25,534 nt of DNA from assembly GCA_000442015.1 (NCBI GenBank), contig KE561054.1, positions 124,001 through 149,534 of the forward strand. Direction: 5' to 3'. Each line of letters starts with the position of its first letter. Positions within the stretch are counted from its first letter, which is position 1. The translations under genes were made by a program, and so were the position numbers. Source of the DNA: Rozella allomycis CSF55 (lineage: Eukaryota). Positions 1-23,172 of the stretch are shown here, piece by piece. The notes beneath the pieces were generated by a model. That model saw nothing but the letters and a program-made list of their open reading frames with translations, made no database searches and was not told the origin of the DNA.

Positions 1-842
1 CCGAATAACTTTTTCCCTAGGATTCCAAATCCCAATTTTACAAAACTTGAAAGTGAAGGGGATTCGTCAGGAGGGCCGGTAATGGTGATGAATAGGCCAT
101 TTTTTCTTAACATACCTTTAGACGCTAAATTGTAATATTCACCTCCACCTACACAGTCTACACAGAGGTGGAAAAAGTCCTTTTTAGTTTCCAGTTGTTT
201 TATCAAGTCACCTTTTGTATAATCAACAACAACGTCAATGCCTATATAGTTTTTCATAAATTCTGCATTTCTGGTACTACAAATTCCCCAAATTTGGCCC
301 ACGCCCATCTTTTTCAGGATTTGACATGTAAAGATGCCTACTCCTCCAGAACAACCGATCACGATCACATTCTTTGAAGAATTATTTTTAACTTCAAAGG
401 GATCAAGCCTACCATTGACAACTAGACAGTACCAGGCTGTCGTTCCACAAACACCAATTGTCGCAGCTTGGCTCCATTCAAATTCCTTTGGTTTTTTTCT
501 TACAGAATCTTTATCGACGTTTAATTTAACAAACTCTGCTTGTGTGCCATCACTTTCCGGTGAATGAAGTTTTCCATACACTTCATCTCCAACTTCAAAT
601 TCAGTGACACCTTCTCCCTTGGCTACAATAACACCAGCATAATCTAAGCCAAGAGTATGAGGGAGAGATATTTTCAAGTATGTTTTCATGTAACCTCCTG
701 CCACCTTCCAATCTACTGGGTTAATTGATGAAGCAATAACCCTCACTATTATCTCTTTGCCATGTGTTATCTTAGGTTCTTCTCTATCCAAAACTTTGAT
801 ATTGCCATCCATTGCATAATGGCTTGCCACGACTGCCTTCAT
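1..842 (-). CDS. NADPH:quinone oxidoreductase / zinc-binding dehydrogenase-like (MDR superfamily), 3'-truncated by the window edge
   Basis: Not in the ORF track. Manual translation from ATG 842 gives MKAVVASHYAMDG...IIVRVIASSINPVDWK...LPHTLGLDYAGVIVAKGEGVTEFEVGDEVYG...VIVIGCSGGVGIF, with the MDR motifs INPVD and G.D.AG and a Rossmann GxSGGVG. The frame is open to position 1. Confidence 0.9.
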   Translation of the reverse strand, partial: MKAVVASHYAMDGNIKVLDREEPKITHGKEIIVRVIASSINPVDWKVAGGYMKTYLKISLPHTLGLDYAGVIVAKGEGVTEFEVGDEVYGKLHSPESDGTQAEFVKLNVDKDSVRKKPKEFEWSQAATIGVCGTTAWYCLVVNGRLDPFEVKNNSSKNVIVIGCSGGVGIFTCQILKKMGVGQIWGICSTRNAEFMKNYIGIDVVVDYTKGDLIKQLETKKDFFHLCVDCVGGGEYYNLASKGMLRKNGLFITITGPPDESPSLSSFVKLGFGILGKKLF

Positions 843-1971: not shown

Positions 1972-2223
1972 GACAGTCGGGGTGGAGAACAAAAAATAGA
2001 AGATAAGACTCACCCGCTATACAGATATATGTTTTTCCTAATTATTAAATTTAACTAGTTAACGATACTTTTCTTCCTATTCTATGATTAATCGTATTTA
2101 CTTAATATATGATGCCATAAATCACTTTTCGTCTGATTTTTTTTAAAACATATTAAAATTTATATTAATAATTTTATANATATATGTCTGATAGAATTCT
2201 TAAAACATATAATAATTTTTTAT

Positions 2224-3608
2224 TTATTTCTTTTTGGGTGCGGTCACGTTAAATTTAAAGTAAATGATGTCTCCATCTTCTATCACATGATCCTTGCCTT
2301 TTTGGAGATACTTTCCAGCAGCTTTGACTTGAGCTTCTGATCCTAAATCCTTCAAGTCTTGATATTTCATGATTTCAGCCATAATAAATCCCCTTTCGAA
2401 ATCAGTATGAATAACCCCTGCTGCCTGAGGCGCCTTGGTTCCTTTTCTTATTGTCCATGCGCGAACTTCATCTGCTCCTGCAGTGAAAAAATAGATTAGT
2501 TGCAAAGAAGAATACCCGGTTACAATAATCCTATATTACAATCGAAATTCTAAAATATACTTTGGAAGGGCGCTTGTAGTGTTTAATTCTTTCAAATATT
2601 GCTCTTTTTCGTCTGGAGTGGACTGTGAGAGTAAAAGCTCCAAGGAACAAGAAAAGGGAATCAAAGTATCGCCAGGGGTGTTTTCGTCAATCCATTGTTT
2701 AATTTTAGGCAACCAAATATGTGACTATAATTAAAAATCTTACCATTTGTTCTTTTTACGAGCATAGTCAGTTTCAGAGATATTGGCCAAATAAGTTACA
2801 GTCTTTGCAGTGAGAAGCAAAAGGGAATTGATAATGTCAATTTCCTTGCCATTCCAGTCACCGTGACGAACGTCTTTTTTCTCTTCGCTGACCCATTTAT
2901 AAACCAATAATTTATTAATTGAAATTAAAATTACTTTTTCCACGGTTTCTAGCTCAAAGACCTTTTCTTTGTTTTTTTCCTGACCACGAATGCCCTTTTT
3001 GAGCGATTCATATTTATTTTTTAAAAATTCTTCATCTTTCAGTCGAAGTTCTTCATGAATGATGCTGAGGTCACGAACAGGGTCAACTTCTCCTTCGACA
3101 TGAACGACATTTGGCTCTGAGAAAGCCCTCACTACATGGAATATACCGTCCACAGCACGAATCTAGTAATTAATAAAAAAAACTTGATCCTACATTGGAC
3201 AAAAAGGCATTTCCAAGACCCGCTCCACTGGCAGCACCCTTAACCAGTCCAGCGATGTCGATGACCGTCAAGTAAGCAGGAACCTAAAATTATGAATATG
3301 TGCAATTACTTTTGACGCTGGCTTATACGTGTCACAAAGCCAATCAAATCTTGCATCAGGAACTGCAACTCTACTCTCCTCCGGATCTATCAATAATATA
3401 TTGTAAATATAATACCTATTGTACAAAATGGGTAATTCTCAGCGGCAACAGCAGAGTTTGTAAGAGCATTAAAAAACGATGATTTACAATTACCAGCAAC
3501 AAATGATACTTACCCAACATTTGGCAATCCTACTATGCCTATTTTCAAGTTATTTGATGGTCGCCCTAATAAAGGCTTTTCAGGCGTGGTTGATGTCTTC
3601 TTTACCAT
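2224..3608 (-). CDS. OLA1: Obg-like ATPase OLA1/YchF
   Basis: Motifs [42 protein letters not shown] and the TGS domain (EVRAWTI...[17 protein letters not shown]). GT-AG introns: 3387-3415, 3284-3309, 3163-3193, 2531-2560. Apparent GT-TG introns: 3487-3513, 2905-2934, 2714-2743. An upstream in-frame ATG lies at 3746. Confidence 0.95.
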
Positions 3609-3639
3609 TTTTTTACTTGCGAAGCCACGCTCTCCTTGG

Positions 3640-4097
3640 ATGAAAACCAGTTTGCGAATACGAGATCGAAAAGGTTTGGGCAGAATTGACGTTGAGAAAC
3701 TGGAGTTTGACCCTTTCGAAGCTAATGAAACTATTGGTGAAAACATTAGCCCTTCTGTGTATGAGGCGCTGCCATCATCCGTAAAAGGAATTTAAATGTT
3801 TGAATAGTAGTATCTTTTGCATTGCATACATGAAGCAACATCATTACACATCGAGGAACCCGAAAGTTATTTTTCAATGGATCCAACTGCTTTGATGGCT
3901 GCCGGTAATATTCTCAATACCAAAACAAGAAGGAATTCTGGTTCAAGAGTTGTTAAGGAGCGAAATATCATCCATGAAGGAAAATTGTAAAATAGGTAGT
4001 TAAATTAAATTTACCGACATCAGTTTTAAACGAGAGTGAAGACGCATTCTTTCAAGACCACATTCGAACACCAAATGAGCAAAGTTCAGAAGAATGA
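3640..4097 (+). CDS. Small spliced gene, Rrn10-like (RNA polymerase I upstream activation factor subunit)
   Basis: Exons 3640-3780, 3811-3904, 3933-3995 and 4024-4097 are joined by 28-30 nt GT-AG introns. The product contains ...EALPSSYLLHCIHEATS...YFSMDPTALMAAGILVQE..., resembling the Rrn10 pattern LPDSDLL..IH...DETAL.A.GIL.EE recalled from memory. Start codon is uncertain. Confidence 0.6.
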
Positions 4098-4214
4098 TAT
4101 TATATTAGTTCTTAAGGTTGGTGTTTAATTGAATGTCGGCATCCATTAAAAAAATAAACTTTTTTGCTCTGTTTGCCTGGGCAAGCCACTATAACCCTTG
4201 TCGGATTTTTTTCA

Positions 4215-4732
4215 ATGGTATGAATTTGAACTTTTCGTGTTTTATTATTCTTATATGTTTCGAATAGATATAATAATTACAGAATTTAATTTCTAGGTTT
4301 ATAATCGCTTTATTGAAGTTGGCCGTGTAGTCCTTGTTAACTATGGTCCAGATGCTGGAAAACTTGCTGTTATCAGCGAAATTATTGATCATAACAGAGT
4401 AAGCGCAATTATTAAGTAAAATACAGGCTATTGTCGATGGTCCAACTACCGGTGTTGCACGTCAACAATTATCTTTTCGCCGACTTGCTGTTACACCATT
4501 TAAAGTTTCAGTTCCACGTGGAAGTCGTTCAAAGACAATCAAAAAAGTTTTTGAAGCTGAAAAAATCGCTGAAAAATGGGAAACCACTTCCTGGGCAAAG
4601 AAATTAGCCGTTAGAGAAAAGAGAGCAGCCATGTCTGACTTTGATCGTTTCAAGGCTATGTTACTCAAGAAGCAACGCCGCGCTGTTGTTGGAAAGGAAT
4701 ATGGAAAATTGAAAAAAGCTGCCAAATTATAA
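4215..4732 (+). CDS. RPL14: 60S ribosomal protein L14 (eL14), 136 aa
   Basis: ATG, then a 79-nt intron (4218-4296), then [34 protein letters not shown], intron 4399-4426, then AIVDGP...SWAKKL...[10 protein letters not shown]... Confidence 0.95.
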
Positions 4733-4814
4733 TAAAATTCATTTCCATTGACACTTGTACTGTTTCTATTTCTAGTTTATTTTACGGCGATTCTTGTTGC
4801 TGGTGGCGCATTTC

Positions 4815-5220
4815 ATGAAAGTAAAGAAAAAGGATTTGAAACGGCAAGAACGCAAAGAAAATTTATTAAAAAGTAAAAGTTATGAAGTTTTTTGAAAAAA
4901 GATCTATACTCTAGGCCTAAAAATGAAAAAAGATGCAAGGCATTTGAATTAGATGATATAAAAAAGGAAGTTTTACTTAATGAAAAGGTTTTAGCATTGT
5001 CGAATGATTTTCACAAAGAAAAGGTTTCAAATAACCAGAAGAGACCAAAGACATCAAAAGGAAGGATTTCTACGTTGTATGGAGATTTTTTTCTTTTAAA
5101 TCTAGACACAAAGAGAAGAAACAGATAAATAATGTACTGAATTTTCCATTATTCCAGAAAGACCCAACTTCTGCTCTAAAGGAACATCTCAAAAACTTAG
5201 TTGAAACTAAACGAATTTAG
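4815..5220 (+). CDS. Slx9/FAM207A-like ribosome biogenesis protein
   Basis: Lys-rich N-terminus. GT-AG introns 4873-4901 and 5077-5105. The C-terminus KEKKQINNVLNFPLFQKDPTSALKEHLKN fits the Slx9 pattern VL..P.F..DP..A...HL.N. Confidence 0.65.
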
Positions 5221-5411
5221 TCAATTACGAAATGGTTTATTTGGATATTAACATGACTCAATAAAGGTGCTTCAGATTTTTTCAGTTACTCTGAAATAAT
5301 TCGGGATAACGTTATATAATATTATTGATAAAGCAATGAAATTATAAAAAATTTTGTGAACTATTTTATTGTTATCACAGTTAAGCCTGATTTAGCAAAA
5401 TTCCAGAATTC

Positions 5412-8023
5412 ATGGATTTTGTTTCTGCCTTACAAAACACGTTAGAAATATTTAGCAATGATCCCAGACCTTACCAAGAGGTTATCTATGATATCCTAAA
5501 CAGGGCAGATTGCTTGAACATAATCTTTTTGTGTTTTCAAGTAATATTGTGCAACCAAGATATATAGAATCGAGACCTTCATTTTACAGGATGCAAACTA
5601 TTAGAAATGCAACTCGTTAAATTAAATTATCAGGATAATATTGAAGATTTTGTCGAGACAATTTGGGCTACAATGGTGGAACAAATGTTCACTGCTAGAG
5701 ACGTTAGAAAAATATCAAAATGGGTAAACGAAATGATTTAGTCGCAAAGAGTGTTTGTATCGCACTTAAAAATGAATGGACTTTTCTTGATAGAATGTTT
5801 ATGTTCGCGGAAAGACAATCGCATTTTCAGTTCATATCTTTGTTTGTCATTGAATGTCTTCGAAATTGTACAGATCAATTTTTAATTTCTTCCTTTGTCA
5901 TTCAAAATTCAAAGTTTGGTGGTGATTGGAAAAATCATTTGGTGGAGAATCTTCCTAAATGCATGGATTTCTTAAAGCAATGTATAATTAATCTACAATT
6001 CTGCGAAGAATGTATGGAAGTCTATGGAGAATGGATAACATATAGTAGGTCTTTAGAGTAATTTGAATTCGATGCTCTAATAAGTGAACTAGTTGAGTAC
6101 ATTAAATTTGTACTTCCTCTATTAAGTAACACACTGTACTTTAAGATGGCATGTGAATGTATCAACCAGGGAGTTCTTGCCAGCCACCATTATAAGAGTC
6201 AAGAAAGCTTTATTTTTCTTGCTTCGAATTTAATTGAATTGTCTAATATGCTAAATGACGAAAATGATTTTTATTCATTCTCAAAGCTACTGGTCAATTA
6301 TGGCAGTACGTTTCCAAACACGTTTTTAACACATGAGCGCCTTATTCATTTACTTTTATCATTGACAACTCGAAATAGTATTTCTTATGATTTAAATATG
6401 TTGTATTTTCCGTGCTGGATTGATCTTGCGTACCATTGTAGCGAGAACGATCGGTTTAAAACAACACTTGAAAAGTGTGTGGAGGCAATGCTACCAAATT
6501 TGATCCATAAAATTTTATACGCTGAATATTCAACAAAGGACGATAAGGATGCCTTTGAATCATTTAGAAATGAAGTATCAGACCTCCTAATTGAATTTTA
6601 CAATTTTGGTTTTCTTAATTTAAGTTTTCTAGATTTAGTAATTACAGACAGTTGCTCCTGGAGGACACAGGAATTATTTTTTTATTTATCTTCGCAATTT
6701 ATTGCTAATGTTAAAGAAATTGATAGTCGTAATATCGTTTTCAGAGGCTTACATAACCTGCCATGTATTAATGATAACCAAATTTTATCAAAGAGTGTAT
6801 TTCGATTTATTGATGAAATTTGCCGCTCGGGTACTTTGGATCTTTTCCCAGATTTTCCTATGCTACCTTTATTGGAATACACTTTAAGCCAATTGAACAC
6901 AATTTCGAAGTTACGCAAAACAATAATTGGCATGTGCTGCAAAATAAATGCTTTGGAGATAAAAGTTTCTCCCGAATTTTTTTCCAATGTTTTGAAACAA
7001 TTTAAACCGAATGAAAATGTAGAGAATAAGTGCGTACTTTGCTCGATTATTGTAATATTGGGTCAGCATGATCAGAAATTTATTGAAAAGTTACTAAATC
7101 TTATCGATGAAGAAGGATGCGTATCTTTTCAATACAAATACTTCATGTCTGTTATAACGCATGTTACAGAGCCTGTAATTATTGAAGCCTTAAGACCACG
7201 TGCTAACAAAGTAATTTCAGCACTGATTGAATACCAATTACTAGAAGAGGCATTCAATTTCATCCCTATTGCTTTAGAAAAAAGTTGCGTTAATTTAAGT
7301 CCTGTCATGAACTTTCTTCATGAAGTTTTATCTAGTGACAAAGACTCTGCCACGATTGAATGTTGCATTAATTGCATGGAAAAGCTTCTTGTTATTGATA
7401 ATGCGCAATCTAGGTCAATTCTAGATCTTTGTCTATTTCGTCTGAAACATTTTGGTGCGACAATGTCAAATCAACCTGAGAATGTTGATTTAATATATGC
7501 GCTAATGAAAAAAGTAATATATTTTCTTTAGTGACAACTGTGCATTTCAGGTATGGCCGAGCTACCGACATCAATTGAAGACGTTGCCACCTTCACCCTA
7601 AATTTTTTATCCATTAAGAATAGAATATGCCTTGAAAAAGTTTGCTCCTTTTTGGTAGAAGATTATGCATGATAATTTTTAGGAATACATTTTAAAGCGG
7701 AAAAGTTTTTCCTTTTGTTCTATTGGATATCCAGTAACAGAGTTGTACACCAATCTATTTATCACCCCACTTCCGAAATCTTATTTGGAGGTTTTATTCC
7801 ACTTGGCGTTCCATATTAAGCGCCATTACCCACAGGAATTTATATTTTCCTTTAATAGTCTATTTAAAAATATGATTGAGAATAAATCCTTGAAAGCGAA
7901 TATTAAATTGCTACTTGAAAATGTTAACCGGTAAATATATCCCATTTATGCTTTACTGGAAGTGCTAGGAATATTAAGGAATTCAAAGACGCTTCATTTA
8001 ATATGTTAAATGCTTTAAAATAA
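5412..8023 (+). CDS. Large alpha-helical (ARM/HEAT-like) protein, possibly a divergent importin-beta family member
   Basis: ORF fragments join through GT-AG introns 5541-5567, 5724-5749, 6058-6084, 7655-7682 and 7931-7962, plus 7514-7540 (GT-TG). Leu-rich helical sequence with a 'SWRTQELFFY' segment like importin-13/transportin-SR W...E. The family call is tentative. Confidence 0.55.
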
Positions 8024-8208
8024 ATCATTTATTGACAAGTACACTAGGTTTATCTTTTAAATTTTATGAACGCTAGCAGTTTTTTAGATACATAAATGTT
8101 TTATTGATCAATTTAATCATTAGCAGAATATCAGTAAAGATTGATTATTTGTATCACTGAAAAACTTTAATCTTGCTGCTCCAACTTTTGGAAATTCCAG
8201 ATCCAAAC

Positions 8209-10715
8209 ATGAATAGCGAATTGACGCCATTGAATATAACTGAAATAGTCTCCGATGTCTTAATCAGTCTTTCTTATTTCGCAATACCATTGGAGATTTT
8301 CTATTTCCAAAAACTACTACCAAATCCATTCAAGTACAGAATTGTCATTTGGCTCTTTGAAATGTTTATTTTTGCTTGCGGAACAACACATTTTGTTGGA
8401 AGTTTTAAATTTTCTTATAACGTCGCTTCTATAATGGTTTTGACTAAGGTCTTGACAGCAATAGTTTCGTTCATAACGGCTATTCTACTTATCCGAGTTT
8501 TTCCGTTAGCGTTTTCACTGCAAAACAGAAATATGAAGTTGGAGGAAGAAATAGGGCTCAGGGAAGAAAATGAAAGAGAATTGATAAAAGCAAACGCTTC
8601 ATTGTTGAGATTTCGTAGGATAGTTAATAGAATTAGAAGTTCCCTGGATGAAAACATATTGATTGACACCGCAGTGAGAGAAATCCGAAGGGAATTTGCG
8701 GCTGATGTGTGTTTGATCGCACAAAAGGATTCCTTGGCAGTGGCTGAGGGGACTTTCAAAGTCAGGGGTATTTCATTCAAAACCCTTAAAGGGTCTATCG
8801 ATACATTATCATTAAACAGTTTAAACGAAAATAAAGATGCCAGTTTTATGAACAAGGATGAAATAAGAGGAATTTTCGGACTGGACACTTCTGTGAAGAG
8901 TGGCTTATTCATTAGATTGAAAGATTCTCAGAATTGTGAATTGGGGATTATGTTCTTATTAAATTATTGTTATGTTAATAAATTTGATGAGATTGAGATG
9001 GAATTATTGCATGAAGTGGCCATACAAATTAGCATTGCTCTTGACCAAGCTATTTCAATTGAAAAGGAGCGGCAAAGTGTAGAAAATTTAAAGAAAGAAT
9101 TTCAAAGAAATGAATTGCTAAATAAAGAAAAGAACGCGGCTGAAATGACAAGCAAAATGACCGCCGACTTTCTAGCCACAATGTCCCATGAAATACGGTA
9201 AATAAAAGTAAAATAAAACAATTTAGGACGCCTTTAAATGCCATAATAGGATTTGGAAATATTCTGCAGCAACAATCCTTAACAGAAGAGCAGCAGGAAA
9301 TTTTGGAAATGATAACTTCGAGTAGCAACCTTTTATTAAATCTGATCAATGATATTTTGGATTACTCAAAAATTGAAAGTGGCTTTTTGTCTTTGGAAGA
9401 TAAAGAATTTTCACTAGTGTCCTCCGTTGAGAGAGTTATTATGCTCAATTCCCAACATTCCTTTTCAAAGAACATTCAATTGAACATGTTTATTGACCCT
9501 TCCGTTCCAATTATGATAAATGGAGATGAAACAAGGTTGAAGCAAGTTTTAAATAATTTTATTAACAATGCCATCAAATTTACAGACACTGGAGAGGTTA
9601 TCGTGACTATCGCCACCACTGAAGATTACTTTAAATTTTACGATTTTTCGGAATGGAAAGAGTTTCATGTTTTGGCGGCAAACAACCATAACGTTCCAAG
9701 ATTGTACTTTAGAATTATTGACACAGGTATTGGAATCGCAGAAGAATCACTCCCAAATTTATTTCAGAAATTTAAACAAGTAGATTCCTCAATCACTAGG
9801 AGGTTTGGGGGTACTGGACTAGGCTTAGCAATTTCATTTAAATTAGTAGAGATTTTCCATGGGTCTCTCTCTGTTTCTAGTCTAGTCGGCAAAGGCTCTG
9901 CTTTCTCTTTTTCAATATCATTAGGATCAAACCCTGGTAAAAAATGGACTGAAAACCCCGCCTTTTCTAAAAAATTTTCAGTTGCAATTGTATCGCCCAT
10001 ATTAAGAACTCGCCAATCAATTGAACATATTTTAACTTGCCTTGAATACCCATTTAAATCGTTTTCTAGTATATCTGAATATTCAAAGTCTACCGATACA
10101 TATCGCATTGTGCTTGTGGATGAAACAGTATCTGAATCACACCTAGATAATATTACCATTCCTGAGAATTGCATGCTCCTTGTCAACAGTTCGTCTACCA
10201 TCCCTGTAACATTCAAACAAAGATTTGTCGCATGTTTAACAAAACCTTTGCGGTACACAAATATTATAAAGATATTTTCTTCAATTAATAATGGAAATTC
10301 AATATCCCTGGACAAGGCAGCTCATTTATCTAGATCTTCTCTCTTTGAAAAGAAGCTGCATATATTGGTGGTTGATGACAATGCAATTAACAGAAAAGTA
10401 ATAGCAAAACTCTTGGAATCTATTCTTTGCCCTCAAATTGATTTTGCTGAAGATGGCGCAGTCGCTGTAAAATTGGCGCTTTCGAAATCTTACGATATCG
10501 TCTTCATGGATGTTTCAATGCCCGTTATGGATGGATTGACAGCTACGCGACTAATCAAAAAAGAAAAGAAGGTGTTTATCGTCGCAATGACAGCCAATGC
10601 CCTCTATCAGGAACGCCTCTTATGCATGGAATCTGGAATGGATGACTACCTTGCAAAGCCCGTTTCACGAGATGACGTTATATCTCTTCTTGAAAGATTT
10701 TTGAAAAGACTCTAA
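8209..10715 (+). CDS. Ethylene-receptor-like (ETR1-type) hybrid histidine kinase: 3-TM ethylene-binding domain, GAF, HisKA, HATPase, receiver
   Basis: N-terminus SDVLISLSYFAIPLEIFYF...FIFACGTTHF matches the ETR1 SDFFIAIAYFSIPLELIYF...CGATH pattern. H-box SHEIRTPLN spans intron 9198-9226. N, G1, F and G2 boxes are present (NNAIKFT, DTGIGI, LFQKF, GGTGLGL). Receiver motifs VVDDN, FMDVSMPVMDG and KP. Confidence 0.93.
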
Positions 10716-11823: not shown

Positions 11824-12521
11824 ATGAATGCTGGAAGAGCGTCGAGAAGAAGATACTCCACGGGTTCATTTTTAGGACCACACGAAGATGTTAAACGAGA
11901 AGAGAATAAAGACAAATCAAACGATGATTCTGATGTAAATGCATTTCAAGTCCCTAAGAATATATGTTTTCTGTGCGGGGGGAAAGGGCATTGGGCAAGA
12001 GAAGTATTTATTTATGCTATATGTGACATAGTGTACTTCATTGCCTAAACCATTTCAAAATGAAAATTCTCCTACATGTTACAAATGCGGGGGTAAAGGT
12101 AAACTTTCATTTTATGAAGTAGAGGTCATTTTGCTCGCACCTGCGCGAGTGGATCTTTAAAGAAGGCAAGATCTATGTGGGCAAGATATCAAGGATTGCA
12201 TATCGGAGAGTCCACGGAAAGCAATTATCCCAATATATCATTTGATTATGCTTACGATCAATACCAACCCCACATTTGTGTTGGGGGAACCACGTACTTT
12301 TACGATCCATTCATTCCTAAATTCAAGGAGGAGGAGGGTTAGTTAANTGTGATACAATTGAAGAGATTCGCACAGACAATGAAGGCGATAACACATCGGA
12401 ATTATCTTCTGGTAACGGAGAAAATAATATTACTGGGGACAACAACGTACTGAATGAGTCAAATTGTAACTTTAGAAATGAAAATGATATTTTTCTTGCA
12501 TATTTAATAAATTATTTTTAA
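11824..12521 (+). CDS. CCHC zinc-knuckle nucleic-acid-binding protein (two knuckles)
   Basis: CFLCGGKGHWAREC and CYKCGGKGHFARTC appear after removing introns 12004-12031 and 12099-12124. A third intron at 12338-12363 is inferred. The 3' end is less certain. Confidence 0.75.
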
Positions 12522-22949: not shown

Positions 22950-23172
22950 TTTGCGGTTTGCCGTTTTGCACTTTTCATTTTTTGGTATAGTCAAATAAAT
23001 TAGAACTCTGGTGACCGAATCCAATTTGTAGTTTTAACAATTTACTAATTTCAGCGTTATTTCGTTATAACTTCAACTCCCAAGTATGCACTTCGTATAC
23101 TCTCGTTAAACTTCTATACATTAATAATAAAAATAATTATCAGTAAATTTGGATTTAATATTAAATTTGTTT

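Follow-up and report, generated by a model that had tools for sequence, protein, structure and literature searches.

Candidate GT-TG micro-introns in the Walker-A codons and at two further sites of an OLA1 gene

Background

Functional GT-TG introns are described, in passages of two papers (PMC4176328, PMC1557818), for the human genes GNAS, TSPYL2 and ARS2, the intron of ARS2 being conserved; the first of these papers cites Szafranski et al. 2007 for human U2-type GT-TG introns. According to these passages, a U2-like 5' splice site is combined with TG at the 3' end, and TG is a recurrent non-AG acceptor. The TG of TSPYL2 is an alternative, tissue-specific 3' site, and GNAS is cited under alternative splicing. 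The present analysis concerns the gene for Obg-like ATPase 1 (OLA1/YchF), located in a 25,534-nt stretch of DNA (contig KE561054.1, positions 124,001 to 149,534) that is referred to from this point on as the window and is numbered from its first letter. Three segments of this gene, designated I1, I5 and I6, have the U2-like donor and the terminal TG by which the GT-TG class is recognized. In the vicinity of I1 and I6, no AG is available that could serve productively in place of the TG. Unlike the human cases, the TGs of I1 and I6 would be the sole productive, constitutive 3' sites of 27-30-nt introns in a housekeeping gene, and two or three of the seven introns of a single gene would be of the GT-TG type.

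A second point of comparison is Saccharomyces cerevisiae without Prp18 (prp18-delta). In the relevant passages of PMC10711555, non-YAG sites, including UUG, are used genome-wide in this yeast, particularly at positions that precede the annotated site. Among the non-AG 3' sites, UUG ranks with those used most efficiently, and its use depends on first-intron-base pairing. Common to the yeast and the present locus is UUG as the 3' splice site of a U2-type spliceosome. The yeast, however, is a mutant in which mostly minor, aberrant isoforms arise, whereas UUG would here belong to the productive pathway of a wild type.

For Rozella allomycis S23, passages of PMC6349667, a paper on microsporidian introns, describe introns of ~30 nt that introduce premature stops. 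These introns are similar in size to the 24-35-nt introns encountered here, and the passages make no mention of non-AG acceptors. The main-text literature searched yielded no report of non-AG acceptors or non-canonical splice sites in Rozella, nor, for the Rozella lineage, of constitutive TG acceptors in ~30-nt introns of housekeeping genes.

A GT-TG segment inside the Walker-A codons

In our judgement, the three segments are probably U2-type micro-introns that have UUG as their 3' splice site and are spliced at TG. The gene model on which this reading is based was built and translated; it consists of eight exons and seven introns and gives a coding sequence (CDS) of 1,182 nt and a protein of 393 aa. 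Each junction was examined by aligning an 18-residue window around it to homologues from the protein search, and it is to these alignments that the counts of gap-free homologues refer. The features of the model, with the three GT..TG segments entered as candidate introns, are as follows.

2224..3608, minus strand: OLA1/YchF (Obg-like ATPase 1) CDS, with ATG at 3608 and TAA at 2226-2224
3514..3608, minus strand: exon 1, ending with the GG of a Gly codon (phase 2); encodes the (I/V)VGLPNVG block common to homologues
3513-3487, minus strand: I1, candidate intron of 27 nt, GTAAGTATCATTTGTTGCTGGTAATTG, GT..TG, with an in-frame TAA at bases 2-4
3416..3486, minus strand: exon 2, which completes the split Gly codon and resumes the OLA1 frame
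3415-3387, minus strand: I2, canonical GT..AG intron of 29 nt, GTATTA...GATAG; junction gap-free in 93/94 homologues
3309-3284, minus strand: I3, canonical GT..AG intron of 26 nt, GTAATT...TTTAG; junction gap-free in 98/102 homologues
3193-3163, minus strand: I4, canonical GT..AG intron of 31 nt, GTAGGA...ACTAG; junction gap-free in 114/114 homologues
2934-2905, minus strand: I5, candidate intron of 30 nt, GTAATTTTAATTTCAATTAATAAATTATTG, GT..TG; stop-free, would add 10 residues if kept
2743-2714, minus strand: I6, candidate intron of 30 nt, GTAAGATTTTTAATTATAGTCACATATTTG, GT..TG, with in-frame TAA, TAA and TAG
2560-2531, minus strand: I7, canonical GT..AG intron of 30 nt, GTATAT...ATATAG; the fourth canonical junction, gap-free in 83/119 homologues

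The minus strand around I1 reads aatgttgg|gtaagtatcatttgttgctggtaattg|taaatcatcg, with the GT at 3513-3512 and the last G at 3487. An earlier note on this DNA, made from the sequence alone, had drawn attention to this GT-TG segment in the P-loop of OLA1, and its sequence, its coordinates and its remarks on AG all proved correct. When I1 is kept, translation from the ATG at 3608, which begins MVKK, meets an in-frame TAA at once, right after Gly32. Exact removal of I1 gives an intact GLPNVGKSS Walker-A motif that is gap-free against 93/93 homologues, so that both halves of the note's argument, the restored motif and the stop in the unspliced frame, were seen again on translation. When rice and human OLA1 structures (5ee0, 7y9i) are aligned to the read-through, exactly nine residues fall in a gap that separates GIVGLPNVG from KS, and positions 1-33 of MMR_HSR1 are stretched across 42 residues of it. 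A translated insert of nine amino acids was ruled out by the in-frame TAA and by the split of GxxxxG|KS.

I1 has a perfect donor, GTAAGT. Its sole AG, at 3510-3509, is part of that donor (GTAAG), and the next AG downstream is at 3439-3438. As the earlier note had recognized, use of the latter would delete GKS: joining 3513 to 3438 would cut 76 nt, shift the frame and remove the GKS part of the loop. The boundaries of I1 are ambiguous to the extent that removing 3514-3488 (GG..TT) yields an identical mRNA, and a further register, 3512-3486 (TA..GT), gives GGG AAA, which is again Gly-Lys. The splice-donor consensus is present only in the GT..TG register. Around I1, 35 GT/GC..AG pairs were tried. 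None restores the P-loop motif, and only five keep the frame open. In four of these five, 18-47 residues are lost, GKS among them; the remaining one is a 30-nt GC-AG option (3538-3509) with a product that lacks GxxxxGKS and has no Gly before Lys. Among the pairs examined, no canonical route to the P-loop of OLA1 can be predicted.

Two proteins predicted from other organisms bear on the position of this segment. The metagenome protein P0123 reads GVVGLPNIG[LVIFLSFFSLYPTAINTPPHS]KSSLFNALT, with 21 aa between G and K, as if a 63-nt intron located at this Gly|Lys position had been read through. P0185 contains a putative read-through insert of ~38 aa two codons upstream of that position. Together these sequences suggest an old or recurrent intron site within the Walker-A codons of OLA1.

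Two further GT...TTG segments and constraint on the gene

I6 repeats the situation of I1, and its removal is obligatory for the OLA1 reading frame as modelled. Its internal AG (nt 18-19; 2743->2725, a 19-nt intron) leads to a frameshift, and the other in-frame GT/GC-AG options delete conserved residues. A crude gene parse took the excision of I6 as the only route through, and with I6 excised the junction is gap-free in 118/119 homologues. I5 is a probable intron for which retention is possible. Its GC content is 10%, against 37% for its open reading frame (ORF), and it is one of only two such stop-free, low-GC segments in the window, the other lying upstream of a start codon. Not one of 118 homologues has extra residues at the ten codons of I5, and 55 of them are shorter at this point by one or a few residues. 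The GT..TG finding is extended in this way, on the evidence of the alignments, to a second, obligatory intron (I6) and a third, probable one (I5). As modelled, the gene can make a working protein only if two or three introns are cut at TG.

The spliced model aligns end to end with fungal OLA1s. Its identity to the OLA1 of Rhizopus, Spizellomyces, Conidiobolus, Syncephalis and Sorochytrium is 70-73%, and the identities of these proteins to one another are in the same range. Because of this level of identity, the gene is considered to be under strong constraint at the protein level in every exon, including exon 1. The same level of conservation argues against the pseudogene that the earlier note had offered as an alternative. 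Pfam MMR_HSR1 matches the N-terminal read-through with an E-value of 2.3e-6, OLA1 structures in the PDB match down to 6e-12, and the family features are all present in the spliced model: an N-terminal GxxxxGKS, a central helical insert and a C-terminal YchF domain. In comparison with OLA1/YchF ATPases (PDB 5ee0, 7y9i, 2ohf, 1ni3, 1jal), the protein of the spliced model is alike and only the gene structure is peculiar.

The public protein model

The closest database protein among the matches listed, P0001, is the NCBI entry 'cytoplasmic protein, partial [Rozella allomycis CSF55]'. It is encoded on a contig of 25,589 nt. The exons that it shares with our model are identical to the window, and it carries precomputed PF01926 and PF06071 (YchF domain). 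After P0001, the nearest matches to the last OLA1 exon as query are fungal Obg-like ATPase 1 proteins with 75-83% identity. Among the matches listed in two protein searches (best 120 each), one protein is named for Rozella, and a metagenome scan for the DNA of relatives returned four loci at 32-52% identity, with no close relative among them. Most likely, OLA1 here is a single-copy-type gene of a Rozella-like organism.

P0001 begins with a stretch that is not part of the model given above.

3620..3746, minus strand: false first exon of P0001, MFSPIV...GERGFA, with ATG at 3746, joined to the AG inside the GTAAG of I1

This upstream stretch has no counterpart in homologues. By this route P0001 loses exon 1 and the P-loop; it also keeps I5 as coding, deletes a conserved 19-residue block to reach an AG and ends six residues early. 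P0001 is without the P-loop and the 19-residue block because the annotation allowed canonical sites only. At the acceptor of I1 it reads AGNCKSS, that is, AAT TGT AAA, which is consistent with TG in its source record. It is possible that this record and the window belong to one assembly.

Comparison with other introns of the window

Introns were counted from a dynamic-programming parse of the window with hand corrections; the counts are of predictions, and genes other than OLA1 were modelled without homologues. The window has 38 predicted GTA...AG introns of 24-35 nt (median 28), four of them in OLA1 and ~34 in other genes. All 38 open with GTA, and the donors of I1, I6 and I5 are GTAAGT, GTAAGA and GTAATT, respectively, each of which conforms to the 5' splice site of a U2-type intron. 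At the 3' end all three depart from the YAG of that type, as they end in TTG. U12-type introns are marked by the 5' splice site /RTATCCTT and the branch site TCCTTAAC; ATCCTT is absent from all three donors, which sets I1, I5 and I6 apart from this class. The lengths of I1, I5 and I6 (27, 30 and 30 nt) fall inside the range of the GTA..AG introns, and their GC contents are 0.33, 0.10 and 0.20, against a mean of 0.25. A position table of the 38 introns shows no clear consensus for a branch-point motif. At -3, T is the commonest base (21/38).

On both strands of the window, GTAAG occurs 29 times in 51,068 positions (0.00057 per position). The chance of meeting it at one of the three alignment-allowed registers of I1 is p ~0.002, the corresponding value for the alignment-allowed registers of I6 is p ~0.003, and the chance that all three segments end in TTG is ~1.5e-5. 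Taking together the donor frequency, the shared TTG end and the preference for T at -3, the three segments resemble the normal introns of the genome, except that T replaces A at -2.

Four further TG candidates in the window were rejected. The candidate at 896 is upstream of the start codon of an alcohol dehydrogenase (ADH) gene, that at 4399 is a canonical 28-nt intron of the RPL14-like gene, that at 7514 marks the end of one gene, after which a new ATG comes, and that at 23143 is located upstream of an ATG. An origin of the TG introns by tandem duplication was also rejected, their similarity to the flanks being no greater than in shuffles (p 0.23-0.98).

The segment in other DNA runs

Contigs covering I1 are found in three other runs, namely X4 record 8 (2203-4225), X6 record 18 (3409-10369) and X7 record 22 (2180-7105). 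The differences listed for X4, X6 and X7 include no indel or joint at I1, I5 or I6. That X6 and X7 might be transcriptomes was considered and rejected, as their contigs run through introns and must therefore be genomic. The other runs differ from the window at ~0.3-0.5% of bases, which implies that several strains or haplotypes exist.

A single substitution inside OLA1 is among the differences listed for the other DNA runs. At 2841, X4 has C for T (plus strand), so that an OLA1 codon reads GTT (Val) in place of ATT (Ile). In X6, one nucleotide of the T-run of I4 is deleted, at 3175. On the 3' side of the OLA1 stop, at 2146-2221, X4, X6 and X7 depart from the window in that 33-55 nt are skipped or replaced in their contigs (joints 2146->2180, 2147->2203 and 2176->2221), and the window around the N at 2179 is probably mis-assembled or polymorphic.

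Probable splicing at TG and its alternatives

If I1, I5 and I6 are spliced at TG, they would most likely leave the transcript by ordinary spliceosomal excision, with UG serving as the 3' splice site in exon ligation. The intron would still end in G, and only -2 would be altered, with U for A. In cryo-EM structures the 3' G of the intron pairs with its 5' G, and the A at -2 contacts the branch adenosine, so that -2 would be the more replaceable of the two bases. In introns this short, what selects the 3' site is probably, for the most part, how far it lies from the 5' splice site or the branch point, and not the AG itself. Actual RNA splicing at these TGs, its efficiency and the tolerance of U at -2 are what we infer from the DNA. 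The earlier note had concluded that this spliceosome accepts TG as a 3' splice site in a core gene. For OLA1, the logic holds up, given the restored motif, the donor, the lack of an AG route, the parallel cases of I5 and I6 and the 70-73% identity. As a general statement about the spliceosome it would go beyond these data, in that the ~34 predicted introns in other genes of the window are all GTA..AG and TG is met here only in OLA1.

Several observations weigh against splicing at TG. Three of the seven introns of OLA1 are TG cases, against none of ~34 elsewhere (hypergeometric p ~0.003, with detection weaker elsewhere; some TG introns of the other genes could have been missed). The lengths of all three are multiples of 3, as is true of only 8/38 GTA..AG introns. 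A simple relaxation of the acceptor leaves both the 3n lengths and the clustering in OLA1 unexplained, and they leave room for what is perhaps a special, retention-prone or regulated class of intron. I5 has an open frame, and its translation is a simple possibility. No RNA run containing the locus was found; the one RNA run compared (X11) yielded only spurious pieces of 19-25 nt, situated on longer, unrelated contigs. Correctly spliced protein for this OLA1 was not found in database protein searches. The acceptor bases may be substituted in other DNA runs, as the differences listed omit 51 substitutions. Finally, splicing here could be inefficient, since short introns of Encephalitozoon cuniculi, a related microsporidian, are spliced at <20% according to a passage of PMC6349667.

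A broader proposal, which we put forward tentatively, is that the organism has a spliceosome with naturally relaxed 3' splice-site fidelity for introns of ~30 nt. UUG might then be a constitutive acceptor, and the organism a wild-type counterpart of prp18-delta. Such relaxation would perhaps be linked to second-step or proofreading factors that the Rozella/microsporidia lineage has lost or altered.

The alternative that survives best, although we consider it unlikely, is that the three acceptors are dead. There would be no splicing at these sites, or only rare splicing, in an OLA1 that was recently inactivated or strongly down-tuned, and transcripts would end at the TAA after Gly32. In support of this, standard spliceosomes accept TG very poorly, and neither a transcript nor a correctly spliced protein was found in the databases searched. 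The confinement of TG cases to OLA1 within the window, the poor splicing to which the short introns of relatives can be subject (in a passage of PMC6349667) and the nature of Rozella as a reduced parasite all point in the same direction. Nevertheless, the frame runs for 1,182 nt with no stop or frameshift apart from the three -2 positions, and in its conservation (70-73%) the protein equals other fungal OLA1s. Exon 1, which has no meaning if I1 stays in, is conserved as well. Three independent changes at -2 in three of seven acceptors, all of them to T and accompanied by no further damage, are also unlike neutral decay (~(7/1385)^3).

It is distinctly improbable that only canonical splicing takes place and that the product is a variant OLA1 without a classical P-loop. 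Such a protein could arise through the P0001 model or through GC-AG introns at 3538-3509 (30 nt) and 2763-2725 (39 nt). Open solutions of this kind do exist, 3538->3509 giving 392 aa and 2763->2725 giving 390 aa, and a public annotation pipeline picked such a model. They come at the cost of discarding blocks encoded in the DNA that match homologues residue for residue, and of replacing GxxxxGKS by a sequence with no Gly before Lys. Moreover, the donors required, GCATAG and GCTCGT, are unlike the GTA donors of the 38 other introns.

We give very little credence to the idea that a sequence error, or a variant of strain or allele, accounts for the T at -2, with TAG at all three sites in the true or major allele. 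Differences of 0.3-0.5% between other DNA runs and the window are in its favour, as are the Ns in the window (2179, 12347) and the unstable assembly nearby (joints 2146-2221). However, one and the same A-to-T error would have to have arisen three times, at separate sites. Only two positions distinguish X4 record 8 (2203-4225) from the window, one of which is 2841, and P0001 translates the three sites as the window does (NCK, IWL and LLV). Nine DNA run entries contain the stretch, eight of them with at least half of its words.

Translational bypass is known from T4 gene 60 and from mitochondrial 'byp' elements, in which take-off and landing codons match. Removal of the segments by this or another non-spliceosomal route, such as DNA elimination, is barely credible. 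In its favour, the lengths are multiples of 3, I6 has identical take-off and landing codons (TGG...TGG) with a stop right after take-off, and the codons of I5 (GTA...GTT) are both Val. Against it, I1 has no matching landing codon (GGG vs TGT before AAA), all three segments open with the splice-donor consensus, an excision from TA to TA around I1 would take out 26 nt and break the frame, flank similarity indicative of duplication or mobile origin was not seen, and the organism follows the standard code and has ordinary GTA..AG introns that match the segments in size. A ciliate reading, with TAA as Gln and internal eliminated sequences (IES) bounded by TA, was rejected on the grounds that long ORFs close under the standard code, that the homologues are fungal and that the 26-nt excision breaks the frame.

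The surrounding window

The long ORFs of the window close properly under the standard code. Neighbours of OLA1 include genes for a zinc-type alcohol dehydrogenase, a DHHC palmitoyltransferase, an ETR1-like hybrid histidine kinase, an ankyrin protein, a DSBA-like protein and an inositol-pentakisphosphate 2-kinase, in addition to the RPL14-like gene. The ethylene-receptor-like hybrid histidine kinase (8209-10715, plus strand) has ETR1_N, GAF, HisKA, HATPase_c and receiver domains and one 29-nt intron, at 9198-9226. Also on the plus strand, at 7529-7553, an ATG-led ORF starts ~20 nt past the stop of the preceding gene of 679 aa, which indicates that the spacing of genes on the same strand is very tight.

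Further differences from other runs fall within or near these genes. At 466, in the ADH-like ORF (3-842, minus strand), a contig of X7 lacks 13 nt, which would shift the frame; at 1229, in the DHHC gene, a contig of X6 lacks 6 nt and the frame is kept. At 12118-12518, a region with an N at 12347, contigs of X6 skip 110 and 175 nt, and the parse splits the region into three small 'genes'. The gene structure across this region is unreliable.

Conclusions

If I1, I5 and I6 are indeed spliced at TG, a core gene under constraint would in nature depend, for two or three introns, on exon ligation at sites other than AG. Annotation restricted to canonical sites would then mis-model every gene of this genome that has such an intron, as it does OLA1. 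Comparative studies using the proteome from which P0001 comes would wrongly score OLA1 as degenerate. The gene would also provide a handle on how very short introns set their 3' end, and it would show how far the AG rule relaxes in a reduced spliceosome on the branch to the microsporidia.

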